Shown: positions 6,253-62,231 of the stretch, in pieces
How the letters are laid out: each line of letters begins with the position of its first letter
Position numbering within the stretch: the stretch's first letter is position 1
Assembly (NCBI GenBank): GCA_964457465.1
Contig: CAYWEJ010000001.1
Coordinates: forward strand, 17,991-81,990
Reading direction: 5' to 3'
Source: an uncultured Gammaproteobacteria bacterium
GTDB lineage: Bacteria > Patescibacteriota > Microgenomatia > Levybacterales > UBA12049
DNA: 64,000 nucleotides
The notes under the pieces: generated by a model
The model's input: the letters and a program-made list of their open reading frames with translations, nothing else
The model's database searches: none
Told to the model about the DNA's origin: nothing
Position numbers and translations under genes: made by a program

Positions 6253-6492
6253 TTATTTAGAAGACTTTTTTAGTAGTTTTTTCCAGGATTTTATCTCTTC
6301 AATTGTTAACCTCTTTTTTGCAAATTTAAAAAGATAGATAATTTCAATAATTCCGATTGTGTTTATCACAAGAACTGCAACAAACCATATTTTTTGGTCA
6401 TTTTTACTTGCTCTCCATAGTGCAATCCCCTTCCAAACAAGTGACCAAAGTCCAATTATATAAAACCAGAACGGATAATTTACTGACGGCAT
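6253..6492 (-). CDS. small two-TM membrane protein of unknown function
   Basis: 79 aa: two hydrophobic helices with W/K-rich flanks and a Lys-rich tail. It is the only minus-strand ORF inside a + strand operon and fills a 295-bp gap. Confidence 0.3.
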   Translation of the reverse strand: MPSVNYPFWFYIIGLWSLVWKGIALWRASKNDQKIWFVAVLVINTIGIIEIIYLFKFAKKRLTIEEIKSWKKLLKKSSK

Positions 6493-15715: not shown

Positions 15716-15767
15716 AAACCCTGTTGCAAGTTGTAAAATAAGTCATATACAATCGTATGTATTATTG

Positions 15768-33407: not shown

Positions 33408-35624
33408 ATGATTACACCAAATTTTGAATTTAATGCAAGAAAGTTTTCAAAAAAGATTTTATTTAGAATTGACACTCTAGTTTTATTTTCCCTTTTTCTC
33501 CTTGTTGCATTTTTTTATAGGAAAGCATTTTTAGGTTATTTTCAGGGTGATGAATGGTATTATTTTTCTCAGTACTTGCCACTGACAAAAAATGGTGGTG
33601 GATTATTTGGAGCAATCTCAAAAAGCATATTTTCTTTTGGAGAAATTTCAGGAGGTGGTCACTTAACTCCTGTCTATTCAGCAATCTGGTATATTCATAA
33701 TAAGTTCTTTGGTCTACATGCGAATTTGTATATTGTTGCAAGTTTAATTGTACACGCGTTAAATAGTTTCCTCATTTATTTAATTGTAAAAAAGTTTTGT
33801 AAAAATTTTATAATAGCTTTTTTATCTGGGTTTTTCTTTGCATGTTCATATCAGCATTTTCAAGCGGTGACATGGATTATGGCATATGTTCCTACTGTAT
33901 ACTCGGTACTTTTTTCTCTTTTATCGTTATATTTCTTGCAGTGGTATTGCTATAAATCGAATGTAATATATATTCTTTTAACTTTTACTTTTCTAGTTCT
34001 TGCTTTACTAACAAAAGAAACCGCATTTATTATTCTTGTTGTGAGTCCAATCGTTGTCTACTTCCTTAAAAGGAAATTTTTTAAAAAAGTAGTTTTATTT
34101 AATGTATTAACAGCAATTTCGTATATAGCTTTTCGTTTCGGTATGCCTGCTGTTCTTCATGAAAATTCTTCTCAAAATTTTTTAAGTGTTTATACTCCAC
34201 AGTTGTTTATTTTTAGGTTGTTTACATATCCAGTTAGACTTCTTGTAGAGATGTACATTCCACAAGAGTTTGTTCTTAGACTTATTGAATATATTACTCC
34301 ACTGGGTTATCCAACGTATGGCGCAGAAAAGCTTGTAAGAGGAATAAATTTTTTAACATTTACTCAAGGACCTGGAAGTGACCTTTTTATATATCCTGCA
34401 GGAGTGTTCTTTGTGCTAATAATCTTATTATTACTGTTCTCACAAAGAAGAAAAAAAAATATATACAACCTTGTATTTATCGGTCTTGCAATAATATTTT
34501 TATCAGCGCTACCCCTTCTTCTCATTGCTTTGTATGCACCAGGATGGGCTTATGTTACATTTATTGATTCGAGGCATTTATATTTTCCATCAATAGGAGG
34601 ATCAATGATTTTTGCTGCTCTGGTTTATAGCATAACGAAATATATTAAAAAATATATTGATAGCAATATGCTATTTTATATCTGGTTTGTGTTGATCGCT
34701 TTATGGATATACGCGCAATATTTCTTATTTCAGACCCAACTAAGCAAAGAGCTTCTTACAGGACAGCAAAGAAAAACAGTAATAAGTAAAATATTGACTT
34801 CTGTCCCAGAGATTAGGAAGGATGCATTCTTTTTAGTTCAGAGCAACACAGGCTATTATGGCTTTGGTCCAATACCACCATTCCAAACAAATCTTAGTCA
34901 AATTTTGGCTATACAGTATTTTGCTTTAAAGCAGCTGCCACAGGAATTTTTAACTGACTATAGTATTACCTCAAAAGGTTTGTCAGGTGAGGGAATACTA
35001 AAACATAATGATAGGCAGTTTGGATTTTTTATTAACCAATCAACATTAATAAACAAGCTACTTGATCAAAAAATATCAAAAAATGATATTTACGCTTTTT
35101 CGTGGGATGGAAATGCAAATTCAATCAGTGATATTTCAGAGGATATAAGAAATAAATTTAATATGGCTAAAAGTCGCTATGATAAATATCATTCATGGGA
35201 TAGAATTTATCTATCAAAGTCAAATATTAGAATGATGGTTCCAAGAAGTTTTGTTATCAGTAAGCCTTTACTCGAAACTAATCAGCAAGATAATCTTATG
35301 TTAAGCTTAGGCCCTGAGAGGTACCAAATAATAGTTTGGAAGAAGACAGTTAATAAGGGTATCTTTGAAGATATAGCATTTTTGAATAATAGTGATGGTG
35401 AAGAAATAGGAGAGAATTTTTATTACCGTGACATTGAGCGTATTGATGGTGAAAAAATTATTTCTAGGATGTCTTTAAAAGGTAGTTCAATGCAATATTT
35501 TTTGCCAACAATAAGCTCAGGATATATCGTGGAAGTTCGAGTTCTTGATAAGAGTAGCATCCTTAATGGGCATGATGATTTTGCTGAAGATTTAATTAGG
35601 CTTTTCTCAAACATTGATGAGTAA
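33408..35624 (+). CDS. polytopic membrane protein (GT-C-like candidate) with a large C-terminal extracytoplasmic domain
   Basis: 738 aa. The first loop has 'FQGDEWYYFSQY', followed by about 11 TM helices and a roughly 300-aa hydrophilic C-terminus. Confidence 0.4.
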   Translation: MITPNFEFNARKFSKKILFRIDTLVLFSLFLLVAFFYRKAFLGYFQGDEWYYFSQYLPLTKNGGGLFGAISKSIFSFGEISGGGHLTPVYSAIWYIHNKFFGLHANLYIVASLIVHALNSFLIYLIVKKFCKNFIIAFLSGFFFACSYQHFQAVTWIMAYVPTVYSVLFSLLSLYFLQWYCYKSNVIYILLTFTFLVLALLTKETAFIILVVSPIVVYFLKRKFFKKVVLFNVLTAISYIAFRFGMPAVLHENSSQNFLSVYTPQLFIFRLFTYPVRLLVEMYIPQEFVLRLIEYITPLGYPTYGAEKLVRGINFLTFTQGPGSDLFIYPAGVFFVLIILLLLFSQRRKKNIYNLVFIGLAIIFLSALPLLLIALYAPGWAYVTFIDSRHLYFPSIGGSMIFAALVYSITKYIKKYIDSNMLFYIWFVLIALWIYAQYFLFQTQLSKELLTGQQRKTVISKILTSVPEIRKDAFFLVQSNTGYYGFGPIPPFQTNLSQILAIQYFALKQLPQEFLTDYSITSKGLSGEGILKHNDRQFGFFINQSTLINKLLDQKISKNDIYAFSWDGNANSISDISEDIRNKFNMAKSRYDKYHSWDRIYLSKSNIRMMVPRSFVISKPLLETNQQDNLMLSLGPERYQIIVWKKTVNKGIFEDIAFLNNSDGEEIGENFYYRDIERIDGEKIISRMSLKGSSMQYFLPTISSGYIVEVRVLDKSSILNGHDDFAEDLIRLFSNIDE

Positions 35625-35675: not shown

Positions 35676-36347
35676 ATGAAAAAATTTGAAAAAAATTATT
35701 TTTCAGGATGGTATAAAGGTGCGGTCGGTGATTTTACAGTTAGTGATCTAAACAGATCAAAAAATTGGTTTTGGGCATGGCTTAAAAAATTAGATACTTA
35801 CGTACATGTTCAGCAAGGAAAGAATAGGGATGTGCTGGAAGTTGGTTGTTCAATTGGGGCAGTTGCTTCCCTTCTTAGTGAGAGAGGTTTTAATGTTTGG
35901 GCCTCGGATGTATCTAGATATGCTGTTAGCAAGGCGAAAAAATTAACGCCTAAAGCGCACTTCTTGACAATTGATATTCAGAAGAAGTTAAACATCAAAA
36001 AAAAGTTTAACATTATTATAGCCTTTGAGGTTGTAGAGCATTTAGAAAAACCACAGTTAGGCATTAATAATATTTTTGCAGGATTGAAGAGAGGTGGTGT
36101 TGCCGTTATTTCAACGCCATATCCATACAAGTGGAATTTCCGAGACCCTACTCATATAAATGTAAAATATCCAGATGAATGGGTGAGCATGATGAGGAAG
36201 GCTGGGTTTGTCAATGTAAAGTATTATAGGTTTACACTACTACCGTTCTTCTACCGTTTTAATAGACACTTTCAAATTATCATACCTTTTGCAATCCCAT
36301 TACCTTATGTTAACAGCCCAATATTTTTTATTGGGTACAAAAAATGA
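35676..36347 (+). CDS. class I SAM-dependent methyltransferase
   Basis: 'VLEVGCSIGAVAS' and 'IIIAFEVVEHL'. Confidence 0.6.
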   Translation: MKKFEKNYFSGWYKGAVGDFTVSDLNRSKNWFWAWLKKLDTYVHVQQGKNRDVLEVGCSIGAVASLLSERGFNVWASDVSRYAVSKAKKLTPKAHFLTIDIQKKLNIKKKFNIIIAFEVVEHLEKPQLGINNIFAGLKRGGVAVISTPYPYKWNFRDPTHINVKYPDEWVSMMRKAGFVNVKYYRFTLLPFFYRFNRHFQIIIPFAIPLPYVNSPIFFIGYKK

Positions 36348-39300
36348 TTAAAAAATTATTTTCTATTAAGAACATAGAGATTCTATTTATCCTGATAATA
36401 GGACTTGCTCCTCTTTTATGGTTTTCTTATTCTCAGGTTATTTTAGGCCATGATGCTGGCCTCCCAATAGATCCTCAAAATCATTTTCAAGATCGACTTT
36501 TTGCATGGACTGAAAGATATGCATTTGGATCTGACCAGACATATGCGTTACCTGGATTTTTTATTCATGGGTTTGAAGCTCTAGTTTCATCTATTGGCTT
36601 TTCATTATTTTGGGAACAAAAAATTACTTTTATTTTTTGGTTTTTAATTCCAGGGGTAACGATGTATTTCTTGGGAAGATACCTTGAGAAGAAATTTTCG
36701 ATATCCCACCTTGCCTTTCCAGCTACTGTTTTATATATGTATAATCATTTTTTACTTCAAGGTTGGTTTGTTGCTGAGAGAACAAAATTTTCCCTGTATG
36801 CAGCTCTCCCTCTACTGTTGTTAATTCTTTTTAAGTGGCAAGAGAAAAATATAGGCACTCTTAAATCTAGTATATATATTTCACTTTTGTTTTTTATTTT
36901 AAACGGTATGGCGAGCTTGCCTCTTTTTGGAGGTATATTCGTTTGCTTGATTGTGTATGTAATTTTTTATTTCTTAGAAAATTTAACCATTAAAGGACTT
37001 CTAGACTTACTACAATTAATTATTTTTACTGGAATAATAAGTGTGCTCTTGCAGTCATATTGGTTGATTTCCTATGCAGACTATTTACTTGGTTCATATT
37101 CTCAGTCTGTAGTTTTTTTTGGAGGGTTTGATGGTGTCATAAGTTGGGTTAAATATATCAGTGAGAACACATCACTTATTAATTTGTTAAGACTACAGGG
37201 GATTCCGGAGTGGTATCAAAACCCTTTGCACCCATACGCTAAAGATTATCTTAACAATGTGTTTTTCATTGGTGTTAGCATGGTTTTTCCAATACTTGCT
37301 TTTTTGCCTTTAGTTCTCTTTAAGGCTAAAAAAATTAAAAAATATGTATTGTTTTTTTCTTTCCTCGCTCTTTTTTCTATGATCTTTATTGGTGGTTCAC
37401 ATCCTCCATTCGGTGGGCTCTATCTTTTGTTCATAAAAATTATTCCTGGATTCTTAGCATTTAGAACTCCATTCTATAAATTTTCTCCAGCTTTATGGAT
37501 TTCTTATTCAATACTAATCGGTTTAAGTATAAGTTATTTTACAGTTTTTTTGAAAAAAAGATCTGTAAATGTCTCTTATCTTTTTTATTTTCTCTTTGCC
37601 GTATGTGTTATCTTTTATAGTTATCCTTTTTTAACAGGGAGCTTTTTTGATTACATGAAAAATGTTAGGACAATGAGGACCAATTTGCCACATTATGTTC
37701 TCGATTTTTCAAAATGGACGCAATCTCCTGAAAATAGTAATAAAAGAATATTGATGCTACCAGCTCCTAATCCAGATAGTAAGATTGAGGCATATACATG
37801 GGGCTACTGGAGCCTTGCACCCTTAAGCACATTATATTCCAACGCATCAATTATTAATGATAGTCACTACTTCAGTGATAACGAAAAAATGATCCTTCAA
37901 GATATGTTTGAGGCAATTCGAAAAAATGATCCTTCATGGACAAAATTTATAAAAATTTTAGGAATAGATTCTGTAGTTGTCAGGAAAGATTTTGCCTGGA
38001 ATCTTCCTGACTCTCCGACACAGTCTCCTGATGCCTATATTCAAGCTTTGCATAAAAGCAAGATTAAAAAAACGAAGTCTTTTGGAGAATGGGATCTATA
38101 TACAATATCTGAGACTTCGGGTGAAAAAATAAATTCATCATCAAAAGTTCATTATTTTGACGGCTCAGGGAAAGACATAGGTAAATTGATAGAAGTACCG
38201 GGTTTTGATGTGAGCATACCTATCTATGCGTCGTCGGACCCTTCAGATAATCAAGATAAGGTATTTAATGCAAGCGCGGACTACATTATTCATCCAGCTT
38301 GTCTTATGTGTGACCTTCAATATAAATATATTGACCCTGCAAAATATTCTTCGCTAATAACAAGGGATTCACTATTTTATCAGTACACAAAGCAGAAAAA
38401 TAGCATAGATATGAATAATCAGGACATGGTTACTGTTTTTTATCAGATATACAGAGAATATTTGCAGTTTTCAAGGCTAATAATTGAAGATAAAGATCAA
38501 CAGTTAATCATTGACAGTGGGAAAGATATGGAGAAAATGATTCAGTTGGCTCAAGAAAAGTTGTCATCAGCGATTAGTGATAGAAAACTACCCAATGAGT
38601 ATGAGCTAAATGATCTCGTTAGTGTTATGAGATCGGTTCAAATGGGCCTTGCGAAAAATATAAAAGATGTATCTGGACGATATAATGATTATCAGGTTTT
38701 TAGCATTATTCAGTCAAACATTGATTCCGTGATTAGTGCTAAGACAAGACTGATTGGTCTTATTGGACTTACGAGCAATAAGGCTTCAAAAAGTTTTATA
38801 GTTAACTCAAAAATAAGTGGGAAGTTCGATCTTTTTTATAAATTAAACGATCAGGTTGCAAAGAGCAAAATTCAAATAAAAATAAATGGTGTAAATAGTG
38901 AGATCAGCCAGATTGACCCTGCTAAGGATTGGTATACACAAAAAAATATACTGTTATCTAGGGGTAAAAACACTCTAGAGGTCTTTCAGTCGTCAATTGA
39001 TTTCTATGAGGGGGATAGAGAACATCTTGTAGTAGCTAAACCATCAGGAGGGTGCTTTATTTCAAAAACAATCTCTGGAAATGTGGGTGATGTTGTAAAG
39101 ACATCTTTTCTCTATAAAACAATTCAAGGCGATCAGTCATTTTATGTTAAATTTATTAAGGAAAAAGATAAGAGGAATTATCTTGATTCTGAAGATGAAC
39201 TTAGGCCTGCTGCTGTGAATATTCAATACACAAACCTTTTCGTTCTTCAAACGCATGAACCTTATGTTTTAGAGATTTGCAACAGACCATTTGCTAATCC

Positions 39301-39694
39301 TGATACAGATTTTGTAACAACGCTTCAAGTTGAAGACTTTTCCTTAATTAGGTTAGTAAGCCCTGAGGCATTTTTTGTTAGTCAACTTTCAAAAGGCAAC
39401 AGCTCAACAGTGGTGTATGAGAGAAAAGATCAGACAAAATATGAAGTTTCTTCAATTACTGGTAATGACATCCTCATCTTAAATGATTCTTACAGTCCAA
39501 GATGGAAAACAGATTTTCCAACGAGTATTCATTTTATGGCAAATGGCTACAGTAATGCATGGCTTGTGGAAGGGAGCAAATCAGGGGCTGTGTCGTATTC
39601 TCCACAAAGAACTGTTTTAATTGGTTTTTTGATTTCATCAGTCACGCTTTTAGTGGTAACATCATATGTATTACTTCGTAAAAAGAAAAAATGA
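36344..39694 (+). CDS. very large YfhO/AftD-like membrane protein (1116 aa): N-terminal polytopic region, large extracytoplasmic domain, C-terminal TM anchor
   Basis: About 13 TM helices in the first ~430 aa. The C-terminus carries 'LILNDSYSPRWKTDF...' (shared YfhO-like motif) and then the TM anchor 'LIGFLISSVTLLVVTSYVLL'. Confidence 0.45.
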   Translation: MIKKLFSIKNIEILFILIIGLAPLLWFSYSQVILGHDAGLPIDPQNHFQDRLFAWTERYAFGSDQTYALPGFFIHGFEALVSSIGFSLFWEQKITFIFWFLIPGVTMYFLGRYLEKKFSISHLAFPATVLYMYNHFLLQGWFVAERTKFSLYAALPLLLLILFKWQEKNIGTLKSSIYISLLFFILNGMASLPLFGGIFVCLIVYVIFYFLENLTIKGLLDLLQLIIFTGIISVLLQSYWLISYADYLLGSYSQSVVFFGGFDGVISWVKYISENTSLINLLRLQGIPEWYQNPLHPYAKDYLNNVFFIGVSMVFPILAFLPLVLFKAKKIKKYVLFFSFLALFSMIFIGGSHPPFGGLYLLFIKIIPGFLAFRTPFYKFSPALWISYSILIGLSISYFTVFLKKRSVNVSYLFYFLFAVCVIFYSYPFLTGSFFDYMKNVRTMRTNLPHYVLDFSKWTQSPENSNKRILMLPAPNPDSKIEAYTWGYWSLAPLSTLYSNASIINDSHYFSDNEKMILQDMFEAIRKNDPSWTKFIKILGIDSVVVRKDFAWNLPDSPTQSPDAYIQALHKSKIKKTKSFGEWDLYTISETSGEKINSSSKVHYFDGSGKDIGKLIEVPGFDVSIPIYASSDPSDNQDKVFNASADYIIHPACLMCDLQYKYIDPAKYSSLITRDSLFYQYTKQKNSIDMNNQDMVTVFYQIYREYLQFSRLIIEDKDQQLIIDSGKDMEKMIQLAQEKLSSAISDRKLPNEYELNDLVSVMRSVQMGLAKNIKDVSGRYNDYQVFSIIQSNIDSVISAKTRLIGLIGLTSNKASKSFIVNSKISGKFDLFYKLNDQVAKSKIQIKINGVNSEISQIDPAKDWYTQKNILLSRGKNTLEVFQSSIDFYEGDREHLVVAKPSGGCFISKTISGNVGDVVKTSFLYKTIQGDQSFYVKFIKEKDKRNYLDSEDELRPAAVNIQYTNLFVLQTHEPYVLEICNRPFANPDTDFVTTLQVEDFSLIRLVSPEAFFVSQLSKGNSSTVVYERKDQTKYEVSSITGNDILILNDSYSPRWKTDFPTSIHFMANGYSNAWLVEGSKSGAVSYSPQRTVLIGFLISSVTLLVVTSYVLLRKKKK

Positions 39695-40053
39695 AAAATA
39701 TCATTAGAGAAATTAGCTTGGTATTTAGTTACATTGAAAAAAATAGTTTTAAGATATTATTTTCAATTGGGATTTTTCTTCTTTTTTCATATATTTTTTC
39801 ATTGCCTTACATAAATCTTCTTGATGCATTTTTCGGATATTTTCCGCACGTTTTTTCTTTGATGGTGTTGTTATTTTTATTAAAACCACCTAAAAATGCT
39901 CTTTTACTAACAGCGCTTATTTTATTTTTATCGTCATATATTTTTATTGTGTTAAACATTAAATTTGTTGCAGATCTTTTAGGAACTATATGCTACTTTC
40001 TTTTAATGACATACGTAATACATGAGATAAAGAGCTCGTTTTTAGACACATGA
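39691..40053 (+). CDS. small four-TM membrane protein (GtrA/GtcA-like candidate)
   Basis: 120 aa with four hydrophobic helices. ATGA-coupled between two YfhO-like genes and two genes upstream of the GtrB-like synthase. Confidence 0.35.
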   Translation: MKNIIREISLVFSYIEKNSFKILFSIGIFLLFSYIFSLPYINLLDAFFGYFPHVFSLMVLLFLLKPPKNALLLTALILFLSSYIFIVLNIKFVADLLGTICYFLLMTYVIHEIKSSFLDT

Positions 40054-41951
40054 TTGATATACTAGGAGCAGATTGGCGTTTTTTTTGGCCTGAAAATATA
40101 CATTTTTTTTCTGGGACTCCACAAGCATGGGATGCAAGTCTTAATTCAGGTTTAGGAATTTCTGGACTCGCAACGATGTGGATAACAAGTTATCTTAATA
40201 TAACTGCGGTATTCGCAAAGATAGGCATTCCATGGTTAGTAGTCGGAATTTTTTTTTGGATTCTACCAATCTTCATTGTTTCATTTATTGCTTCTGCACT
40301 ATTATTTAAAAAAACAGTCTCAGCAGAAAAGAAGTATTATTTATTCTCAGGTTTGGTATATGCATGGAACACGTATATTCTCGGGATAGTGGGTGGAGGT
40401 CAATTGGGGGTTGGTTTGTCCTATTCAATTTTACCCTTAATTTTTTTAAGTTTTTATTTCTTACATAAAAAACCAAACTTTACTAGAAGCATTTTGTTTT
40501 CCTTAGTTTGTAGTCTTCAAATTTTATTTGATCCTCGTTTTTTCTATATTAGTTTGATTGGGCTCATCGTTTTCTATTTCGGGATATGTAACAAATTTCG
40601 CATCAACCTTAGGAATGTCATTTTTATTTTTATCGTCCCAGTTGTTATTATTTTTGTATTCAATGCATATTGGCTCATTCCGTTACTGCTGGCAACCTCT
40701 TCGTCTCTTCCTGAAAAAATTAGCACTCAAAGCAGCCTAACTTTTTTGAGTTTTGCTCGTTTTTCGCAGGCAATTTCACTTCTTCATCCCAATTGGCCAG
40801 AAAATATATTTGGAAAGGTATATTTTTTTCAGCCACAATTTCTTTTCTCACCGATACTATTAGCAGTAGGGCTTTTTTTACAGAAAAAAAATAGCAGAAT
40901 TTTTTTAAGCTATATTTTGCTTATTGTAATAGGGGTATTTATATCAAAAGGAGTTAATGAGCCTTTTGGGATAATTAATGTAATACTTTTTCACCATATC
41001 CCTGGTATGGTTTTATTTAGAGATCCCACAAAGTTCTACATATTGACTGCAATTTCATATGCAATGCTCCTCCCATTTGCTATGCAGCAGTTAAGTGCTT
41101 GGCAGAATAAAAAAAGGACATTCATAGTTTTATTAATAGTTAGTTTTTGGGTTTTACTTCCATTTTCAACTTTTTATCTTGGAAACGGATTTGAAAATTT
41201 TGTACCAAAGAAAATACCAGAAAAATATGTACTTCTTAAAAATTTTCTATTGTCAACGAAGGGTTTTTCTCGAACTTATTGGGTACCAGAATGGGAGAAG
41301 TATGGCTATTTCTCAAATAAGACTCCAGCTTTGGGAATGAGCGAATTTTTTGACAAGAAAGACGTGAAAATAAATCAGCAATCCATCCTGCCTACTCGTG
41401 ATGATTTGGCAAATCTATCTGTTAAATATGTGATTTTATCAAAAAACGATAGTAGTCTTAAGACAAACCCTGCTAGGGAGATTCTTCAGTACGAAGAAAA
41501 TAGAAAATATCTTGACTCAACTCCATGGCTTAGACATGTAACATCCTTCGACGATTTACGAGTATATAGCTTTTCTGATGGCAAAGCACATTTTTGGAGT
41601 GATAATAAAGATTTATTGATACGAACATTATCTGCTTCACAGAGTGAACACAAACTTTTGGTAAGCAATGTCAAAAAAGAAAGTACTATTATTTTCACTG
41701 AAACCTATGATCCAAATTGGGAGATGATTGTTAACGGCATATCATTCCGCTCTAGTCCCTATAGAAATCAATATAATAAATTTACTCTTAATAAAGAGGG
41801 TAATTATGAAATAGTAATTTCATATAGGCTTCAAAACGTTGTTCAGAAAACGATAATTGCTAGCAACTCTATAATTTTTCTTCTATTCCTTTATGTAGTT
41901 CTTTCTCTCCAATTCCCAAAGCTAAAGATACGTAGCTTTCGAAAGAAGTAG
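40050..41951 (+). CDS. YfhO-like polytopic membrane protein (GT-C-type candidate)
   Basis: 633 aa with many TM helices. C-terminal 'IIFTETYDPNWEMIVNGISF...' motif plus a terminal TM anchor. Confidence 0.45.
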   Translation: MIDILGADWRFFWPENIHFFSGTPQAWDASLNSGLGISGLATMWITSYLNITAVFAKIGIPWLVVGIFFWILPIFIVSFIASALLFKKTVSAEKKYYLFSGLVYAWNTYILGIVGGGQLGVGLSYSILPLIFLSFYFLHKKPNFTRSILFSLVCSLQILFDPRFFYISLIGLIVFYFGICNKFRINLRNVIFIFIVPVVIIFVFNAYWLIPLLLATSSSLPEKISTQSSLTFLSFARFSQAISLLHPNWPENIFGKVYFFQPQFLFSPILLAVGLFLQKKNSRIFLSYILLIVIGVFISKGVNEPFGIINVILFHHIPGMVLFRDPTKFYILTAISYAMLLPFAMQQLSAWQNKKRTFIVLLIVSFWVLLPFSTFYLGNGFENFVPKKIPEKYVLLKNFLLSTKGFSRTYWVPEWEKYGYFSNKTPALGMSEFFDKKDVKINQQSILPTRDDLANLSVKYVILSKNDSSLKTNPAREILQYEENRKYLDSTPWLRHVTSFDDLRVYSFSDGKAHFWSDNKDLLIRTLSASQSEHKLLVSNVKKESTIIFTETYDPNWEMIVNGISFRSSPYRNQYNKFTLNKEGNYEIVISYRLQNVVQKTIIASNSIIFLLFLYVVLSLQFPKLKIRSFRKK

Positions 41952-41991
41952 TTTATTTGGATTCCCCGAACGTACATGGTAAAATAAAGAA

Positions 41992-42930
41992 ATGATTAGT
42001 GTAGTTGTGCCCGTTTACAATGAAGAAGAAAGTGTTGAGCACTTTTTTGAGGCCTTAATTACAGAATTGCAAAAAATCAAAGAGGATTTTGAGATATTGT
42101 TTATTGACGATGGGTCTAAAGATAGATCGTTTGAGATTTTAAGTAACATTGTTAAAAAGAATAAAAAAGTTTCACTTTTTTCCTTAAGAAGAAACGTTGG
42201 CAAAGCTGAGGCTTTATCATTAGGTTTTCTTAAGGCTAAAGGAGATATTATTGTGACTCTAGATGCTGATCTTCAAGACCAACCGAGCGAAATAAAAAAT
42301 CTGCTATCTGTTTTTAGACAAGGATTTGATGTTGTTTGCGGATGGAGAAAAAACAGAAAAGACAAATCAAGAATGAAAATTATTTCCAAACTATTTAATC
42401 TGCTTGTAGGTACGATTTTTGAAGTAAAAATCCATGATTACAATTGTGGTCTGAAACTCTATTCAAGTGAAGCCGCGAAAAGTCTAAGGCTATATGGTGG
42501 GCTTCATAGATTTATACCGATTTTAGCACACGAGCAAGGATTTAGTGTAACTGAGGTAGTTGTAGATCACAAACCAAGAGAGTTTGGGAAATCGAAGTAC
42601 GGATTCTCTAAAATTTTTAAGGATGTTCCAGATATGTTCACGATGATGTTTTTAGTGAAATACATGAAGCAACCTTTGCATTTTTTTGGAACGATTGGAG
42701 GGCTGTTAATAGTATCTGGTTTTATTATCTTAGGCTATCTATCAGTTCTTAGGTTTTTCGGAGAGAAGATAGGAACACGGCCGCTTTTCTTATTTGGTAT
42801 TTTATTATTTCTCGCAGGAATACAAATTTTCTTTACAGGATTTCTTGCAGAACTGTTAATTAGTATTACTCATAGAAAAGATTCTGTGCATTTTCCGATA
42901 TCATATGACAGTTCAAAAGATGGTGAATAA
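41992..42930 (+). CDS. GT2 polyprenol-phosphate glycosyltransferase with two C-terminal TM helices (GtrB/CsbB/ArnC/Ppm1-like)
   Basis: 'ISVVVPVYNEEESV', 'LFIDDGSKDRS', 'RRNVGKAEALSLGF', 'TLDADLQD' (DXD), 'DYNCGLKLY' and two C-terminal helices. Confidence 0.75.
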   Translation: MISVVVPVYNEEESVEHFFEALITELQKIKEDFEILFIDDGSKDRSFEILSNIVKKNKKVSLFSLRRNVGKAEALSLGFLKAKGDIIVTLDADLQDQPSEIKNLLSVFRQGFDVVCGWRKNRKDKSRMKIISKLFNLLVGTIFEVKIHDYNCGLKLYSSEAAKSLRLYGGLHRFIPILAHEQGFSVTEVVVDHKPREFGKSKYGFSKIFKDVPDMFTMMFLVKYMKQPLHFFGTIGGLLIVSGFIILGYLSVLRFFGEKIGTRPLFLFGILLFLAGIQIFFTGFLAELLISITHRKDSVHFPISYDSSKDGE

Positions 42931-42939
42931 AAACGTTTA

Positions 42940-43149
42940 ATGAAACCACAAGACCTTATTTTTTTAAGTATTATGTTATTATTGCTTTTTAGTAAAAATC
43001 ACAAAATATTTGCTGCACTTGCTATTGGGTTGTTGATAATTGCTATACCTCTTTTTGAATTCTGGAAATTTTTTACTGCAGAGCGCATGGTGTTGTATTC
43101 TGCAATTTGCATCGTTATCTCAGTTATATTTCTTCAAAAAAAGAAATAG
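42940..43149 (+). CDS. small two-TM membrane protein of unknown function
   Basis: 69 aa, hydrophobic, directly after the GtrB-like gene. Confidence 0.3.
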   Translation: MKPQDLIFLSIMLLLLFSKNHKIFAALAIGLLIIAIPLFEFWKFFTAERMVLYSAICIVISVIFLQKKK

Positions 43150-43153
43150 TATT

Positions 43154-43693
43154 ATGAAGATTGGAATAGACATCTCACAACTTACGTATCAGCATACAGG
43201 TGTTGCAAAATATCTTGAAGGCTTGCTCTCAGCATTGATTAAGGATAAGGATGGAAATGAATATGTGCTGTTTTACTCTTCATTAAGAGGAAATCTTTCT
43301 CCAGTTTTTGAAAAAAAATTGGATCTGCCTAATGTTACTATCAAAAAGTTTAAAATTCCTCCATTACTCCTTGATCTTATATGGAACAAATTGCATATTT
43401 TTCCGATAGAGACATTTATTGGAAATGTTGATATTTTCCTTACTTCAGACTGGACAGAGCCTCCAGCCCGCAAAGCCCTAAAGGCAACCATTCTATATGA
43501 TTTGATCATATACCTCTTCCCTGAGGAGTCAACAGAAAAAATTGTTCTAACCCAAAAGAGGAAGCTCTCGTGGGTTAAGAAAGAGTCAAATGCTATTTTT
43601 TGTATTTCTGATGCGACAATGAAAGATGCTATAGAAATTTTAAAAATAAGCAGAGACAAACTCCACGTTATTCATCCAGGATTCAAAATATGA
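43154..43693 (+). CDS. GT4 N-terminal (acceptor) domain only: a truncated paralog of the next gene, possibly a pseudogene or a split glycosyltransferase
   Basis: 'MKIGIDISQLTYQHTGVAKY...LHVIHPGFKI*'. It ends exactly where the full-length paralog 43690-44817 continues ('IHVVYPGIKEV...'). Its stop TGA overlaps the next ATG. Confidence 0.45.
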   Translation: MKIGIDISQLTYQHTGVAKYLEGLLSALIKDKDGNEYVLFYSSLRGNLSPVFEKKLDLPNVTIKKFKIPPLLLDLIWNKLHIFPIETFIGNVDIFLTSDWTEPPARKALKATILYDLIIYLFPEESTEKIVLTQKRKLSWVKKESNAIFCISDATMKDAIEILKISRDKLHVIHPGFKI

Positions 43694-44817
43694 AGATAGG
43701 TATTGATGCAAATGAGGCAAATGTCGAAAAAAAAGTGGGAATTAGTGAGTATGTCTATGAGCTATTATTAAAATTATATCCACTAGCATCATCCAATGAT
43801 AATTTCATAATATATCTAAAAGATCAACCAATCGGGTTCCCACAAACATCAGCTTATTGGACTTACAAGATATTTGGACCTAAGAAACTTTGGACACAAT
43901 TTGCTCTTCCATTAAAACTTTTTACTCATAGAAAAAAACCTGATATTTTCTTCTCTCCAGCACATTATGCTCCAAGAATTTCGCCAGTCCCAACAGTAAT
44001 ATCCATTATGGATCTCGCTTTTTTTCATTTTCCTGATTATTTTACAAAAAAGGATCTTACCCAACTACATAGATGGACAAATTATTCAGTTAAACAAGCA
44101 AAGGCTATTATTACGATAAGTGAAGCGTCTAAAAATGATATAATCAGTTTGTATCACATTAATAAAGAAAAAATTCACGTTGTCTATCCAGGAATTAAAG
44201 AAGTTAAATCTTTAGATCCACATATTTATTCTATGGAAGAATTACAAAGCAGATATAATATTTCCAAGAACTATCTCCTTTTTGTTGGCACTCTGCAGCC
44301 ACGAAAGAATATTGCTCGTTTAATAGAGGCATTCTCAAAAGTTGTGGCAAAGGAAGGTGTGAGTACTGAGTTGCAACTTGTTGTTGTTGGCAAGAAAGGT
44401 TGGAAATATGAAGAGATTTTAAACGCACCTCGAAAATTTGGCGTTGAAGATAGAGTAAAATTTCTTGATTTTGTTGATGATAGTAATTTGGTTTTACTCT
44501 ATAAAAATGCACAGATTTTTGTCTGGCCTAGTCTCTACGAGGGTTTTGGTCTTCCTATTCTTGAAGCAATGCAAAATAATTGCCCTGTTATTACAAGTAA
44601 TATAAGCAGTATGCCTGAGGCGGGTGGTGATGCAGCGTTATATGTTGATCCTATGGACGTGGACGATATTGCCAAAAAGATTCAAAAAGTACTTTCTGAT
44701 AAGAAGTTGAGATTACATATGATAGAAAAAGGAAATAAGCATATTAAGAAATTTAGTTGGGATCATGCTGCAAAGAAGACTCTGGAAGTTCTGCGGGAAG
44801 TCGCTCATAATAGATAG
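43690..44817 (+). CDS. GT4 family glycosyltransferase
   Basis: 'MKIGIDANEANVEKKVGISEYV' and 'EGFGLPILEAMQNNCPVITS'. Confidence 0.7.
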   Translation: MKIGIDANEANVEKKVGISEYVYELLLKLYPLASSNDNFIIYLKDQPIGFPQTSAYWTYKIFGPKKLWTQFALPLKLFTHRKKPDIFFSPAHYAPRISPVPTVISIMDLAFFHFPDYFTKKDLTQLHRWTNYSVKQAKAIITISEASKNDIISLYHINKEKIHVVYPGIKEVKSLDPHIYSMEELQSRYNISKNYLLFVGTLQPRKNIARLIEAFSKVVAKEGVSTELQLVVVGKKGWKYEEILNAPRKFGVEDRVKFLDFVDDSNLVLLYKNAQIFVWPSLYEGFGLPILEAMQNNCPVITSNISSMPEAGGDAALYVDPMDVDDIAKKIQKVLSDKKLRLHMIEKGNKHIKKFSWDHAAKKTLEVLREVAHNR

Positions 44818-44818
44818 T

Positions 44819-45424
44819 ATGAAAGATAAGAGTGGCACAGCATTGTCTGCAAATGAGGCAATAAGGAGAGGAGCTAATAGAATGTCAGCTATCTCACTTG
44901 AGGCGACCAATTTCGTACTTCATATAATAGGTATGATCCCTTCTCATCACCTTCGACGATTTTTTTACCGTTTGGGAGGTATGGAGATTGGGAGTGGATC
45001 AAGTATTCATATGGGTATGAGAGTGTATGACTCATCCCATATTGTTGTTGGTAAAGATACTATTATTGGAGAGGGTGCAGTGCTTGATGGGAGAGCAGAA
45101 CTTCATATTGGGAATCATGTTGATATAGCATCAGAAGTAATGATTTATAACTCTGAACATAATATCCATGCGGAGGATTTTGCTGGTAAGGACGGCGTTG
45201 TAAAAGAGAAAGTTGTTATTGAAGATTATGTATTTATAGGTCCTCGTGCAATTATTTTACCTGGTGTGACTGTAGGAAAAGGAGCAGTTATTGGGGCAGG
45301 GGCTGTCGTTACAAAAGATGTAAAACCATTTTCAATTGTAGCAGGCGTACCTGCTAAAGAGATAGGCGAGAGAAGTAATAAAGAACCTTCTTATACGTTA
45401 GGGAGGGCTGCATGGTTTCGATAA
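44819..45424 (+). CDS. hexapeptide-repeat (LbH) sugar O/N-acetyltransferase
   Basis: In-frame ATG 1 nt after the upstream stop. Imperfect hexapeptide repeats 'IGEGAVLDGRAELHIGNHVDIASEVMIYNSEHN...IGPRAIILPGVTVGKGAVIGAGAVV'. Confidence 0.7.
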   Translation: MKDKSGTALSANEAIRRGANRMSAISLEATNFVLHIIGMIPSHHLRRFFYRLGGMEIGSGSSIHMGMRVYDSSHIVVGKDTIIGEGAVLDGRAELHIGNHVDIASEVMIYNSEHNIHAEDFAGKDGVVKEKVVIEDYVFIGPRAIILPGVTVGKGAVIGAGAVVTKDVKPFSIVAGVPAKEIGERSNKEPSYTLGRAAWFR

Positions 45425-46260
45425 TAATACTTTCGTATAACAGGAGTGATCTATTAAGTGCTTGCCTTGCATCATTATATAAAGATATCAAGACTGATTT
45501 TGAGGTAATTGTAGTTGACAACGCTTCAAAAGACGATAGTGTTGCAGTTGTCAAAAGAAATTTTAAGAAGGTTAATCTTATTGAAAATAATGAAAATTCT
45601 GGGTTTGCAAAAGGTTGTAATTTAGGTGCAAAGCAAGCTAAAGGTAATTTTTTATTATTTCTCAATAGCGACGCATCAGTTATTGACGATCCACTACCAG
45701 ATCTCTTAAGAACATTTGAGCAATATCCTGAAGCTGCTGTTGTAGGGGGACTTCTTCTTAATCATGATCATACTCTGCAACGTTCTTTCGGTGGATTTTA
45801 TTTCCTTAAAAATGTTTTTAGAATGCTATTTCAAGGAGAAAAAGGTGAACTTGAAAAATATAAAAGTACCACAGTTCTTGAGGTAGATTGGGTGAGTGGT
45901 GGTTTTATGATGGTCAGAAAAGATGTGTTTGATAAGGTTAAAGGGTTTAACGAATCATATTTCATGTATATAGAAGATATGGATTTATGTTATAGAATTA
46001 AGAAAATAGGTTCAAAAATATATGTCAATCCCAATGCAAAAGTTGAGCATTTAGGGCAAGGTAGTAGCAATAAGACATTTGCAATTGTACACATTTATAA
46101 AGGTCTGCAAATTTTTTATAAACAACAGCGCAGTACCTTTGAATATTACTTAGTAAAATGCATGCTTGCCATCAAAGGTATGCTATCGCTTGTGATAGGG
46201 GTTCTTACTTTCAATAAGTATCTTATTCGTACGTACATCGGAGCACTTAGGACATTATGA
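45412..46260 (+). CDS. GT2 family glycosyltransferase
   Basis: 'VSIIILSYNRSDLL', 'VVDNASKDDS' and 'YIEDMDLCYR'. Confidence 0.7.
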   Translation: MVSIIILSYNRSDLLSACLASLYKDIKTDFEVIVVDNASKDDSVAVVKRNFKKVNLIENNENSGFAKGCNLGAKQAKGNFLLFLNSDASVIDDPLPDLLRTFEQYPEAAVVGGLLLNHDHTLQRSFGGFYFLKNVFRMLFQGEKGELEKYKSTTVLEVDWVSGGFMMVRKDVFDKVKGFNESYFMYIEDMDLCYRIKKIGSKIYVNPNAKVEHLGQGSSNKTFAIVHIYKGLQIFYKQQRSTFEYYLVKCMLAIKGMLSLVIGVLTFNKYLIRTYIGALRTL

Positions 46261-49200
46261 AAATAATTTCATATATCAAAAATAATTTTCTATTGTTATT
46301 GACGCTTTTCTTTTTGGCTTTCATACCTTTATATCCAAAGCTTCCTCTTTTAGACATCAAACATACATGGGTCTATATTCGTATCGAAGATGTGCTCGTT
46401 GCATTTGCGTGGGGTGTCTTCTTTGTCTCCTATTTCCGTAGAAAAGCTACCCTTAAGACGCCTTTAACATTACCGATAGCTGTGTTTTGGGCGATTGGCG
46501 CATTGGCAACTCTAAGCGGGGTTATATTTATTTTTCCACGTCTTGAAGGGGTTTTTCCAAATTTGGCATTTTTAAGTTTTTTAAGACGAGTTGAGTATCT
46601 TTCCCTCTTTTTTCTAGCGTTTTCATCCATTAAGAATAAAAATGCTATTAATCCTATCGTCACAACTCTTTCCTTGACATTATCGGCTGTTTTTATTTAT
46701 GGCATTGGGCAAAGAATGTGGGGTTTTCCTGCGTTTTTGACAATGAATGAAGAATTCGCAAAAGGAATTCCTCTTCGCTTATCAGCACTTGCAAGGATAC
46801 CATCAACTTTTGCTGGGCATTACGATCTTGCTGCGTATCTTATCCTTCTTATTCCTATCATGGGAAGTATGATTTTTGGTTATAAAAAATGGTATCTCAA
46901 AATAATTTTCTTTTTGCTAGGAGTAGGTGGTCTTATTTTACTTCTTATGACTGCATCTAGGGTCTCATTTGCTGTTTATCTTGTATCTGTAGCGTTTCTT
47001 CTTATTTTGCAAAAACAAAAAAAATATATTATTCCTGTATTTATTCTTAGTATTTTATTGTTGAAGTCTTTTACCGGTCTTTCTCAGCGTTTTTCTCAAA
47101 CATTTACCCAAGTTGATCTTATTGTTGATTCTCGTACAGGAAAAGCCATTGGAATAGCATCAGAAATCGGAGGAGATTCGATTACTATTGAAGACAAGCA
47201 GTCGACAGGTGAAAACCTTCCAGCGGGATCAAAATATATTAACTTTCCATCTTCACAAGGACAGCAGCTGGACTCCCAAATTGTCTATAAAAAACTCAAA
47301 CCTGGTGGAGAGGGAGAGGAGATAATTACTAAAGCTGGAAAAGTAATAGTTAAGAAAGCATTTGCATATGATGTATCTTTTACAACTCGTTTTCAAGGTG
47401 AGTGGCCAAGAGCAATAGAGGCGTTTAAGAGAAATATTTTACTGGGGAGTGGGTATGGGTCGATTAGCCTTGCAACAGACAATAGCTTTTTAAGAATGCT
47501 TGGCGAAACGGGGCTCCTTGGATTTTTCTCTTTTGTTCTTATTTTTATCTTTATTGCAATCTATCTATTTAGAATTGTTGATGATATCGATGACAAAAGA
47601 ATTAGAGCGCTTGTATATGGTGTGTTAGCAGGATCGTTTGGTCTTGCATTAAATGCCATTCTTATTGATGTATATGAAGCATCAAAGGTTGCATTTGTAT
47701 TATGGACTGTTGTTGGTGCAACTCTTGGTCTTGCAAAACTATATCAGAAGAAAGATATTAAGTATTTTGTAGAAATGAAGAGGATTTTTACCTCAACTCC
47801 TGCTTTGATTGTAATTATTGTTGTTGCTGGGTTTTTGTTTTTTTCACGATCTCTTTCAAATTATTTTGCAGGCGATGATTTTACATGGCTTAGGTGGGCA
47901 GCTGATTGCCATCGGTTATTAAGTTCTACTGAGCAGTGTTCGTCAATTTTTAGTACTATTAGTCATTATTTTTCTCATTCTGAGGGATTTTTCTATCGTC
48001 CAGGGACAAGGTCGTATTTTCTTTTGGCTTATCCTGTCTTTGAGCTTTTCCCTTTACCATTCCATGTTATATCTTTACTGCTTCATCTATCGGCGACTCT
48101 TTTTGTATTTTTTATTCTTAAAAAGTTATTGCAACATACGCTTCTTGGTTTTGTCGGAGCTATATTTTTTCTATTTTTAAGTATTCATGCAGAGGCAGTT
48201 TATTGGATATCAGTAACAGGACATTTGATTGCAACTAATTTTATATTCATGTCATTCCTTTTCTTTATGTATTGGGTTGAGACTAAAAAGAAATTCCTTT
48301 TTATTTTTTCTTCATTTGCGGTAATGATCGCAACATTTTTTCATGAATTTGGAACAATAGGATCATTTCTTTTGATTGCTTATGATTTGATTTATCTTAC
48401 ACCATCAGTCAAAAATCTTTTTAGAAAATGGTACTACCTTCTCTTGATTCTTCCTGTGGTAATGTACTATGTCTTGAGGACTCAGGCATCAAGCGTATGG
48501 TTTCAAGGAGATTATTCATACAATTTTTCCATGCTACCTTTAAATGTGCTAGGCAACAGTATCGGCTATCTTATTACTAGCATCTTAGGACCTGTTTTTA
48601 TCCCATCATATTCTGCAATTCGTCTTTACAGTGGGCAGCATATTGGAGCGAGTGTTATTGTAGCACTTGCTCTTTGCATCGCTCTTGCTTTTATTGGTTA
48701 TAGAAATAAAGAGAAAATTTCAAAGACATCATGGAAATCGCTATTTCTAGGTGCAGCGTTATTTATTATTCCTCTCTCTCCGTTTTTGGGTCTTGGAAAC
48801 CTCAGTCCTCGATATGCTTATACAGGATCAATCGGAGTAGTATTCATTTTGGCTTACTTAATGAAAGGACTACTTATGACAAAAACTAAAAGAAGAAAAG
48901 TTCTCGTAGGTGGACTTGTTATTATCAGTTCACTTTTCATTCTTTTTCATATAAAACAATTAGACAAGAGTAACAACGAATGGAGGAAGGCTGGAGAAAT
49001 TACAAATAGTGCACTTGTTGGTATCAACTATGCATATGTAGTGAATAGCACATTGCAACCAGGTTCAACGTTTTACTTTGTTGACGTTCCAATTAAGTAC
49101 GCTGATGCTTGGGTATTTCCTCAAGGATTAGAGGATCCTTTGTGGTTCTCATTCCAGAACACAGCTCCTCAAATTAAAAACGCTTCATCAGAGAAAGAGG

Positions 49201-49334
49201 CTCTTTTAATGGTAAAGAATGATCCTGTTCGTATAAAGGCATTTAAGTTCCAAAAGGACGGCTCTTTGGTTGAGATAAATCTACCAATACCTACTACTAC
49301 CACCGTAACAACGGTAAATTCTTATGCGAAATAA
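46257..49334 (+). CDS. fusion protein: N-terminal Wzy_C (O-antigen ligase / PglL-like) domain plus a second polytopic GT-C-like domain and a C-terminal soluble domain (1025 aa)
   Basis: The N-terminal half has 'TFAGHYDLAAYLIL', 'MTASRVSFAVYLVS' and 'LGSGYGSISLATDNSFLRMLGETGLLGF', which match the conserved loop motifs of the O-antigen ligase/polymerase family. The C-terminal half begins with the acidic loop 'FAGDDFTWLRW' and has about 10 more TM helices. Confidence 0.55.
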   Translation: MKIISYIKNNFLLLLTLFFLAFIPLYPKLPLLDIKHTWVYIRIEDVLVAFAWGVFFVSYFRRKATLKTPLTLPIAVFWAIGALATLSGVIFIFPRLEGVFPNLAFLSFLRRVEYLSLFFLAFSSIKNKNAINPIVTTLSLTLSAVFIYGIGQRMWGFPAFLTMNEEFAKGIPLRLSALARIPSTFAGHYDLAAYLILLIPIMGSMIFGYKKWYLKIIFFLLGVGGLILLLMTASRVSFAVYLVSVAFLLILQKQKKYIIPVFILSILLLKSFTGLSQRFSQTFTQVDLIVDSRTGKAIGIASEIGGDSITIEDKQSTGENLPAGSKYINFPSSQGQQLDSQIVYKKLKPGGEGEEIITKAGKVIVKKAFAYDVSFTTRFQGEWPRAIEAFKRNILLGSGYGSISLATDNSFLRMLGETGLLGFFSFVLIFIFIAIYLFRIVDDIDDKRIRALVYGVLAGSFGLALNAILIDVYEASKVAFVLWTVVGATLGLAKLYQKKDIKYFVEMKRIFTSTPALIVIIVVAGFLFFSRSLSNYFAGDDFTWLRWAADCHRLLSSTEQCSSIFSTISHYFSHSEGFFYRPGTRSYFLLAYPVFELFPLPFHVISLLLHLSATLFVFFILKKLLQHTLLGFVGAIFFLFLSIHAEAVYWISVTGHLIATNFIFMSFLFFMYWVETKKKFLFIFSSFAVMIATFFHEFGTIGSFLLIAYDLIYLTPSVKNLFRKWYYLLLILPVVMYYVLRTQASSVWFQGDYSYNFSMLPLNVLGNSIGYLITSILGPVFIPSYSAIRLYSGQHIGASVIVALALCIALAFIGYRNKEKISKTSWKSLFLGAALFIIPLSPFLGLGNLSPRYAYTGSIGVVFILAYLMKGLLMTKTKRRKVLVGGLVIISSLFILFHIKQLDKSNNEWRKAGEITNSALVGINYAYVVNSTLQPGSTFYFVDVPIKYADAWVFPQGLEDPLWFSFQNTAPQIKNASSEKEALLMVKNDPVRIKAFKFQKDGSLVEINLPIPTTTTVTTVNSYAK

Positions 49335-62173: not shown

Positions 62174-62200
62174 TAGTGATTATTAGTGATTTGTAGTGAA
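62174..62200 (+). promoter_or_regulatory. three direct repeats TAGTGAT / TAGTGAT / TAGTGAA at exactly 10-bp spacing: candidate MraZ operator
   Basis: Read directly: 'aaaTAGTGATtatTAGTGATttgTAGTGAAttc'. It lies 32 nt upstream of the mraZ start codon. MraZ proteins are known to bind phased direct repeats in their own promoter region. Confidence 0.5.
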
Positions 62201-62231
62201 TTCTGTAATCACGTCTGCTCATTTACAAGTT

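Follow-up and report, generated by a model that had tools for sequence, protein, structure and literature searches.

Transmembrane glycosylation systems made up of several components have been described in both Gram-positive and Gram-negative bacteria, examples being CsbB-GtcA-YfhO, GtlA-GtcA-GtlB and the phage-encoded GtrA-GtrB-GtrC (PMC8035078; PMC5836110). The logic of a lipid-phosphate-sugar synthase that acts together with a transferase of the GT-C glycosyltransferase (GT) fold is textbook knowledge. GacJ of Streptococcus pyogenes, a protein of 113 amino acids (aa) with three transmembrane (TM) helices whose gene directly follows gacI, associates with GacI into a complex, reduces the Km of that enzyme for undecaprenyl phosphate from 18.7 to 1.1 μM and raises its Vmax, with Rv3632 acting likewise on PpgS of Mycobacterium tuberculosis (10.1101/180810). 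In AftD, a single TM helix (TM12) is followed by a separate bundle of helices, TM13-16 (10.1101/2019.12.22.885152). The present work concerns a 64-kb stretch of DNA (contig CAYWEJ010000001.1), the whole of which is referred to here as the window, and four consecutive genes found on it. These encode a 120-aa membrane protein (s120), a 633-aa glycosyltransferase of the GT-C fold (GTC633), a membrane-anchored glycosyltransferase of family GT2 (GT2_312) and a 69-aa membrane protein (s69).

The best-supported reading takes this region to be a variant on the transmembrane glycosylation systems described above. With a probability of roughly 0.55, it represents a glycosylation step that uses a lipid-linked monosaccharide, set within a very large surface-glycan cluster of a Levybacteria-type bacterium (Microgenomates, candidate phyla radiation (CPR)), with s69 being a third component of the step and s120 lying outside it. 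In this step GT2_312 would sit in the membrane, its catalytic domain facing the cytoplasm, and would take one sugar from a nucleotide donor and attach it to polyprenyl phosphate; its family is assigned by homology to ArnC and GtrB, with its activity and its sugar being presumed. The lipid-phosphate sugar would then be flipped to the outer face of the membrane. Outside the cell it would be used on a glycan or protein by GTC633, the fold of which was established by structural comparison and the donor and acceptor of which are presumed. The acceptor would presumably be a product of the Bac_transf, GT4, GT2, Wzx and Wzy_C genes that the cluster also contains.

Comparison with described systems

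As in CsbB-GtcA-YfhO and GtrABC, a membrane-anchored GT2 of the GtrB/CsbB/ArnC type adjoins a multi-spanning GT-C enzyme with an extracytoplasmic C-terminal domain, and the operon also includes genes for small membrane proteins. The locus differs from these systems in that its GT-C enzyme is nearer to AftD than to the YfhO family and in that no GtrA-family protein is present, the four-TM protein found in the position of GtrA belonging to another GT-C enzyme. Furthermore, the part of conserved third component falls to a protein of 69 aa whose family is unannotated, and the genes do not form a stand-alone operon but are surrounded by about a dozen GT-C genes.

A small membrane protein encoded immediately downstream of a GT2 that synthesizes a polyprenyl-phosphate sugar is shared with both GacI-GacJ-GacK-GacL and PpgS-Rv3632. 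A GT-C enzyme as the final transferase and a Wzx-type protein in the same cluster are further likenesses to the Gac system. However, s69 is shorter than GacJ (69 versus 113 aa), has no similarity to DUF2304 and occurs as often beside a GT-C gene as beside a GT2 gene, and GT2_312, unlike GacI, possesses two TM helices of its own.

The combination of a lipid-phosphate-sugar synthase, small multi-TM flippase subunits and a GT-C transferase is also the logic of ArnC-ArnE/ArnF-ArnT, and among enzymes of solved structure ArnC is the nearest to GT2_312 (E 1e-45). Neither an SMR-like ArnE/ArnF nor a partner resembling ArnT (PMT_2-type) is adjacent, however, and lipid A is not to be assumed as the acceptor. 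With mycobacterial AftD (6W98) the locus shares a GT-C TM domain, a periplasmic domain and a single returning TM helix. GTC633 differs from AftD in showing approximately 11% identity and in having neither TM1, nor the large multi-domain periplasmic portion, nor the four-helix bundle.

Gene array and evidence that the reading frames are real genes

All four open reading frames (ORFs) of the preliminary description of the region were found again at the same positions (Table 1). The ORFs of s120 and GTC633 overlap by 4 nucleotides (nt; ATGA), with spacers of 40 nt preceding GT2_312 and 9 nt separating it from s69. The tight coupling of the four genes that had been described is therefore real, but it also holds for the genes on either side. 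The stop codon of the upstream gene for a 1116-aa GT-C enzyme (GTC1116) overlaps the start codon of s120 by the same ATGA, and the gene downstream, GT4N179, begins 5 nt past s69. No promoter- or terminator-like sites exceeding the expectation from shuffled sequence were found between 35.5 and 45.5 kb. The four genes are an excerpt of a co-directional array of more than 30 genes, with the window, of approximately 33% G+C, being essentially one such array. Their description as a compact three-component module was thus right in kind for the pair of GT2 and GT-C enzymes, but what it delimited is a slice of a larger conserved block that includes a pair of GT4 genes and further genes.

Selection was assessed against a related contig (L002) with 86% nucleotide identity across 20 kb. 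Ratios of nonsynonymous to synonymous substitution (dN/dS) were 0.19 for s120, 0.10 for s69, 0.15 for GTC633, 0.05 for GT2_312 and 0.17 for GT4N179. On this contig s120 and s69 were intact and free of insertions or deletions; the other two frames of the s120 and s69 stretches contained 3-13 stop codons and gave dN/dS values of 0.7-5. The four ORFs are real genes under purifying selection, and the two small ORFs, besides being intact on L002, have homologues in many other genomes.

For the examination of gene order, 160 related loci were sampled, 80 fetched through GTC633 and 80 through s69. Homologues were found to derive nearly all from metagenome-assembled genomes labelled as Levybacteria/Levyibacteriota, Gottesmanbacteria, Roizmanbacteria or ‘Patescibacteria group’, and the window is accordingly assigned to a CPR bacterium of the Microgenomates type. 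The block from GTC633 to the Wzy_C gene is syntenic across genera.

The GT2 enzyme as a probable polyprenyl-phosphate sugar synthase

GT2_312 was found to match PF00535 (E 1.5e-32), and it carries the motifs quoted for it previously, ‘TLDADLQ’ (containing the DXD) and ‘HDYNCGLKLY’. Its previous assignment to the GtrB/CsbB-like enzymes was borne out by full-length alignment with solved ArnC and GtrB, which makes it a polyprenyl-phosphate glycosyltransferase of the ArnC/GtrB/CsbB type, and it does not cluster with the processive synthases. Solved ArnC (9hwj) is colinear with GT2_312, membrane helices included (residues 2-289 against 10-295, E 1e-45), and further matches were obtained with GtrB sll0501 (5ekp, E 2e-38) and the Pyrococcus DPMS (5mlz, E 3e-18). 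Two C-terminal TM helices are predicted at residues 235-253 and 265-283; among the nine GT2 genes of the window, GT2_312 alone possesses them.

Full-length NCBIfam matches were obtained to ArnC (1.4e-54) and PgfS (4e-44), but at scores below the equivalog cutoffs (185 versus 529 bits and 151 versus 500 bits, respectively). By these scores GT2_312 is a member of the clade and an orthologue of neither ArnC nor PgfS. Its homology indicates that it probably loads a sugar onto polyprenyl phosphate.

Two further sets of related enzymes were noted. A GT2 of 246 aa that possesses no TM helices and is DPM1-like shares 28% identity with GT2_312 over the catalytic region, and its gene directly precedes that of a PMT-type GT-C enzyme near the start of the window. 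In four of the related loci (L010, L024, L109, L131), GT2s of approximately 243 aa with weak matches to GT2_312 adjoin GTC633.

The GT-C-fold enzyme

The 633-aa protein had been described as a YfhO-like GT-C enzyme. Its AlphaFold2 (AF2) model (pLDDT 81.5, pTM 0.83) was compared with known structures using Foldseek, and the top match was AftD (6w98; E 1e-6, TM-score 0.51 on the query), followed by PglB/STT3 (approximately 3e-4) and AftA, all with a probability of 1.00. The assignment to the GT-C enzymes is thus well founded. Membership of the YfhO family is another matter, as GTC633 gave no Pfam match, either to GT-C_AftD or, at E <= 0.1, to YfhO (PF09586). When 30 of its relatives were scanned singly, eight matched GT-C_AftD (PF11847; best E 1.4e-8) and three PTPS_related, with only one matching YfhO (E 1.8e-6). 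The AF2 model and TM prediction give an architecture of a multi-TM domain, a beta-rich C-terminal domain and a final TM helix. This plan of multi-TM domain, extracytoplasmic domain and final TM helix is common to YfhO and AftD-like proteins and does not discriminate between them. GTC633 is accordingly YfhO-like at the level of fold and architecture alone, and going by its predicted structure is closest to AftD.

Databases were found to hold at least 438 homologues of GTC633, nearly all without Pfam annotation. The clade they form, AftD/YfhO-like, is confined to Microgenomates-type CPR bacteria. An alignment of 30 family members contained 48 invariant columns, including D8, W27, H246-P247-N248 and R324-D325; within the N-terminal loop, the counterpart of the first extracytoplasmic loop in which GT-C enzymes keep an acidic residue, D8 and W27 are invariant and D28 is kept in at least 90%. 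GTC633 and GTC1116 are distant paralogues, with two colinear stretches aligned by BLASTP (E 8e-6 and 0.006).

In distant relatives of GTC633 an initial TM helix leads into ‘F[KR]xWF...GGDW’, whereas the protein of the window and its closest clade begin at ‘GGDW’. At least 60 of the 120 closest homologues appear to have no TM1, and an in-frame stop codon lies 9 codons upstream of the GTC633 start. Judging from these alignments, the subclade of GTC633 has lost its first TM helix.

A local NCBIfam match to MmpA (E 7e-9), which is annotated as a trehalose lipid delivery protein, was found for the conserved residues 270-364 of GTC633 (‘LHPNWPE ... FRDPTKFY’). This hints that MmpA shares a GT-C-like segment with GTC633.

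s69 as a probable third membrane component

The two small proteins of the region had been thought to have no detectable sequence signature, but both were found to belong to families with invariant motifs. For s69, 1,707 proteins were retrieved from the database with a profile at E <= 0.01, giving a family of approximately 1,700 members. The best 120 of these are 68-100 aa in length (mostly approximately 70 aa), have no Pfam domain and are called ‘hypothetical’ where named. The family motif is MK[PI]QD ... SIPLFxFW[IV]FFTA[EQ]R, in which M1, K2, Q4, D5, F39, F44, F45, T46 and A47 are invariant. Homologues of s69 were detected in most of the related loci with TBLASTN (32-52% identity). Its hidden Markov model (HMM) matched in 144 of 161 sequences (the 160 loci and the window), never within a longer ORF.

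The earlier description of s69 as a two-TM protein holds as to its two full-length hydrophobic helices, but it is not secure given an additional short hydrophobic segment of 12-13 residues at the N-terminus. With the positive-inside rule applied to aligned sequences of the family, the hairpin containing FFTA[EQ]R is predicted to face outward. Family scans of 31 s69 members at E <= 1 gave matches to DUF7657 (E 0.003, 3 of 31 members) and Lycopene_cyc (9 of 31, best 6e-4, without application of the family cut-off), which were taken as noise arising from hydrophobic composition. DUF2304 (PF10066) was not among the families listed (25 of 34) for these members. Searches of PDB sequences with the s69 and s120 profiles at E <= 10 returned nothing. 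Fusions of s69 or s120 to longer proteins were sought with phmmer (for s120), with a search for the motifs in the fetched proteins and with HMMs on all ORFs of the 160 loci and the window; none were found.

The gene directly upstream of s69 was the orthologue of GT2_312 in 21 loci of the genome set and 21 of the metagenome set, GTC633 in 24 and 11, and a minus-strand methyltransferase gene, which itself usually follows GT2, in 3 and 9, respectively. The stop and start codons of s69 often overlap those of its GT2 or GTC633 neighbour. Downstream, an orthologue of GT4N179 (GT4N) followed s69 directly in 22 and 14 loci. Among 16 fully covered loci sampled through s69, 13 had GT2_312 and 13 had GT4N at a distance of up to 3 kb, and 9 had GTC633 at up to 5 kb. 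For 62 GTC633 loci with at least 3 kb of downstream sequence, 47 had s69 and 26 had an orthologous GT2 inside those 3 kb, the GT2 being directly downstream of GTC633 in 15 and separated from it by s69 alone in 4 more. Where GT2 and GTC633 are apart, s69 stays beside one or the other. These linkages suggest s69 to be a conserved third membrane component that travels with GT2 and GTC633.

Many related genomes carry the methyltransferase-like gene mentioned above, which encodes approximately 199 aa and lies on the opposite strand, precisely at the junction of the GT2 and s69 orthologues (L013, L035, L116-L118, L120, L130, L138, L140, L156, L161, L162). It is absent from the window.

Synteny did not single out one partner for s69, with GT2, GTC633 and the GT4N/GT4 pair being linked to it to similar degrees. 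Two other accounts of s69 have to be considered beside that of a third component. Under the first there would be no dedicated module: GT2_312 would be a donor synthase shared by several GT-C enzymes, s69 would belong to the cytoplasmic pair of GT4N179 and GT4_375, for example as an anchor, and its adjacency to GT2 and GTC633 would be mere conserved gene order within a long operon. The window indeed holds about a dozen GT-C genes against one TM-bearing GtrB-type GT2 and one short DPM1-like GT2. Of the fully covered loci, 13 of 16 and 39 of 48 have GT4N downstream of s69 at no more than 3 kb, a linkage equal to or better than that of GT2 and GTC633 and often direct, and the synteny across genera of the whole block from GTC633 to Wzy_C would be expected of a conserved gene order. 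However, s69 shares stop/start overlaps with GT2 or GTC633 in many loci, and from GT4N it is often separated by 0.7-1.5 kb of other sequence. In those of the loci listed where GT2 has been relocated from GTC633, s69 more often moves with GT2 (e.g. L012, L028, L033, L055), and the predicted outward orientation of its most conserved motif is unexpected for an anchor of cytoplasmic enzymes. This account is regarded as unlikely.

Under the second, s69 would be an activator in the manner of GacJ and Rv3632 that binds GT2_312 and raises its affinity for polyprenyl phosphate, with no part in flipping or in the GT-C step. Its position 9 nt downstream of GT2_312, which recurs as direct adjacency to the orthologous GT2 in 21 loci of each set, is that of GacJ, the small membrane activator encoded immediately downstream of gacI (10.1101/180810). 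Against this, s69 follows GTC633 directly in the 24 and 11 loci given above, many loci with GTC633 and s69 have no orthologous GT2 within 3 kb, and no fusions of GT2 with s69 were found. Furthermore, GacI is a cytoplasmic enzyme without membrane helices of its own, of which GT2_312 has two, and DUF2304 did not appear among the families reported for the 31 s69 members. An exclusively GacJ-like role seems quite improbable. Taken together, the likely roles of s69 would rank as a partner of the GT-C/GT2 pair, either as an accessory subunit or in handling the lipid, first, a GacJ-like activator of GT2 second and a membrane partner of the GT4 pair third.

Several observations weigh against the reading of GT2_312, GTC633 and s69 as components of one glycosylation step. 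With about a dozen GT-C genes sharing the window, GT2_312 may feed several of them and not GTC633 specifically, and an orthologous GT2 lies within 3 kb in only 42% of GTC633 loci. In the searches made, s69 showed no similarity to DUF2304/GacJ, to GtrA or to any PDB chain, and the GT4N/GT4 pair follows it at least as consistently as GT2 or GTC633 precedes it. Finally, GTC633 has no TM1, although GT-C enzymes normally have this helix ahead of their catalytic loop.

s120 and its partner GTC1116

GTC1116 was found to match GT-C_AftD (PF11847; E 1.6e-7, 30.1 bits against a cutoff of 26 bits). Its N-terminal multi-TM domain is followed by a large extracytoplasmic domain, and the protein ends in one TM helix (residues 1090-1106). 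The AF2 model of s120 (pLDDT 94, pTM 0.74) shows an N-terminal helix and four TM helices. Homologues of s120 numbered two when a word-indexed search was used; an exhaustive phmmer search recovered 36 stand-alone cluster representatives of 105-129 aa. The family possesses the invariant residues P39, Y40 and N42 (‘LPYxN’).

An s120-type ORF (103-177 aa, mostly with four TM helices) was found to follow 31 of 33 GTC1116 orthologues at a distance of -40 to 0 nt, the invariant ‘PYxN’ being present in 28 of these ORFs. With the family HMM, 37 of 46 evaluable s120-type ORFs were located directly after GTC1116. In five loci (L008, L011, L070, L073, L084) the pairing was kept with GTC633 lying kilobases away or behind other genes, and many loci with GTC633, GT2 and s69 have no s120. 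Because the pairing persists where GTC633 and GT2 are far away, s120 belongs with GTC1116, and it would appear to be a dedicated four-TM partner of that enzyme which stands outside the GT2/GTC633 step.

In the preliminary description s120 had instead been taken for the GtrA/GtcA component, a flippase forming with GT2 and a YfhO-like GT-C enzyme a self-contained module of the GtrABC or CsbB-GtcA-YfhO type. This fits with its position immediately upstream of a GT-C gene, with which it shares the 4-nt overlap, and with the window having no other GtrA-like gene, so that the role of flippase is otherwise unfilled. Its four helices also agree with the three to four TM helices of the small GtrA/GtcA proteins, but this is a generic property. 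GtrA (PF04138) gave no match to s120 at E <= 0.1 and matched none of 19 family members (s120 and 18 relatives) at E <= 1. The partner that s120 has kept is GTC1116 and not GT2 or GTC633, and many loci with GTC633, GT2 and s69 are without it; GTC633 moreover fails the YfhO HMM. A GtrA-type role for s120 is thus considered very unlikely.

Two other relationships between s120 and GTC633 were considered and rejected, namely that s120 supplies the missing TM1 of GTC633 and that the two ORFs are a single frameshifted gene. Four observations led to the rejection. The number of helices in s120 is even, with both termini predicted to lie inside. GTC633 proteins without TM1 occur with no s120 upstream (L006, L012, L021), and TM1-bearing ones occur with an s120-type ORF upstream (L018, L052). 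The fourth is the in-frame stop codon 9 codons before the GTC633 start.

The place that the TM13-16 bundle occupies in AftD corresponds to that of the separate s120 gene after GTC1116. By analogy, s120 may stand in for this four-helix bundle, which AftD carries fused after its single post-periplasmic helix. No sequence or fold similarity between s120 and AftD TM13-16 was detectable, and, according to prediction, s120 exposes its conserved motif on the outer side, in contrast to the AftD bundle, which has its binding site for acyl carrier protein (ACP) on the cytoplasmic side. A wider proposal would make both s120 and s69 obligate membrane subunits of AftD-like GT-C enzymes, of a previously undescribed kind, with s120 as a free-standing TM13-16 and s69 as a minimal partner, its motif facing outward, handing the polyprenyl-phosphate sugar to the GT-C enzyme or across the membrane. 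It is put forward tentatively, and is doubtful as a whole.

Remaining genes of the glycosylation cluster

GT4N179 was found to match PF13439 over the whole protein (E 1.5e-5). It is kept as a gene of 170-190 aa in most related loci, in many of them right after s69. It is a real gene for half a glycosyltransferase and not a pseudogene, because its dN/dS is 0.17, and it is a possible alternative partner of s69. GT4_375 matches PF00534 (E 8.5e-39) and is syntenic in most loci.

The cluster further encodes an initiating Bac_transf enzyme, several GT4 and GT2 enzymes, a Wzx-like protein, a Wzy_C protein and sugar-nucleotide modification enzymes (Table 1). The window is unusually rich in GT-C-type genes, which number roughly a dozen and span positions 488-50757; two large proteins without a Pfam match may raise this count. 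The genuine YfhO family member of the window is overlapped at its 3’ end by a gene for a GT2 without TM helices, forming a second GT-C/GT2 pair. Family scans of the window proteins identified no GtrA-family gene, and no flippase was recognisable near the module of GT2 and GTC633. The flippase might be s69, the Wzx-like protein or the product of a gene elsewhere.

Further features were observed in the array. In one of its few intergenic gaps lies an ORF for a protein with two hydrophobic helices and a lysine-rich tail. The ORF of a hexapeptide acetyltransferase, as listed, shares its first 53 nt with the end of the GT4 gene; its true start is probably a downstream codon, because the orthologue on L002, called at 201 aa, begins just past the GT4 stop. 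The genes mraZ and mraW (rsmH) are located at the 3’ end of the window, which places the glycosylation cluster right beside the beginning of the division and cell-wall (dcw) cluster.

Table 1. Genes and other features of the 64-kb window, by position in the window
Feature	Coordinates	Strand	Description
PTPS_related/YfhO-like gene	488-2095	minus	GT-C-type
GT2	2165-2905		246 aa, no TM helices, DPM1-like
PMT-type gene	2907-4586		GT-C-type
Small ORF	6253-6492	minus	79 aa
YfhO family member	7623-9842		GT-C-type; PF09586, 95.6 bits (cutoff 28.5)
GT2	9839-10786		315 aa, no TM helices
PMT_2 gene	10758-12473		GT-C-type
PMT_2 gene	12495-14117		GT-C-type
PMT_2 gene	14114-15715		GT-C-type
Large protein	15657-17501		no Pfam match
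Large protein	17505-19514		no Pfam match
PMT_2 gene	20325-21785		GT-C-type
Wzx-like protein	24110-25372		
Weak PMT_2 gene	33408-35624		GT-C-type
GTC1116	36344-39694	+	1116-aa AftD-like GT-C enzyme, upstream of the four genes
s120	39691-40053	+	120-aa membrane protein
GTC633	40050-41951	+	633-aa GT-C-fold glycosyltransferase
GT2_312	41992-42930	+	312-aa membrane-anchored GT2, ArnC/GtrB/CsbB/PgfS type
s69	42940-43149	+	69-aa small membrane protein
GT4N179	43154-43693	+	179 aa; GT4 N-terminal (GT-B) domain alone
GT4_375	43690-44817	+	full-length GT4 (GT-B) glycosyltransferase, after GT4N179
Hexapeptide acetyltransferase	44765-45424		219 aa
Wzy_C protein	46257-49334		GT-C-type; 1025 aa
PMT_2 gene	49324-50757		GT-C-type
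Bac_transf	55218-55883		initiating enzyme
mraZ and mraW (rsmH)	62196-63531		3’ end of the window

Implications

The assignments of the enzymes themselves are unsurprising. What is new are two conserved, unannotated families of small membrane proteins in CPR bacteria, each tied to a different GT-C-type enzyme. These bacteria have very small genomes, yet a large share of the 64-kb window is given to surface glycosylation. As the organisms are uncultured and the functional steps are inferred, the value of these findings lies in annotation and in the generation of hypotheses. The pairing of s120 with GTC1116 could show how the C-terminal helical bundle of AftD arose or is supplied in trans. In a window that has no recognisable GtrA, the s69 family is a concrete candidate to fill the vacant role of flippase or accessory protein, and if s69 does flip the lipid, it would represent a new and very small flippase-type component acting in place of GtrA in CPR bacteria.

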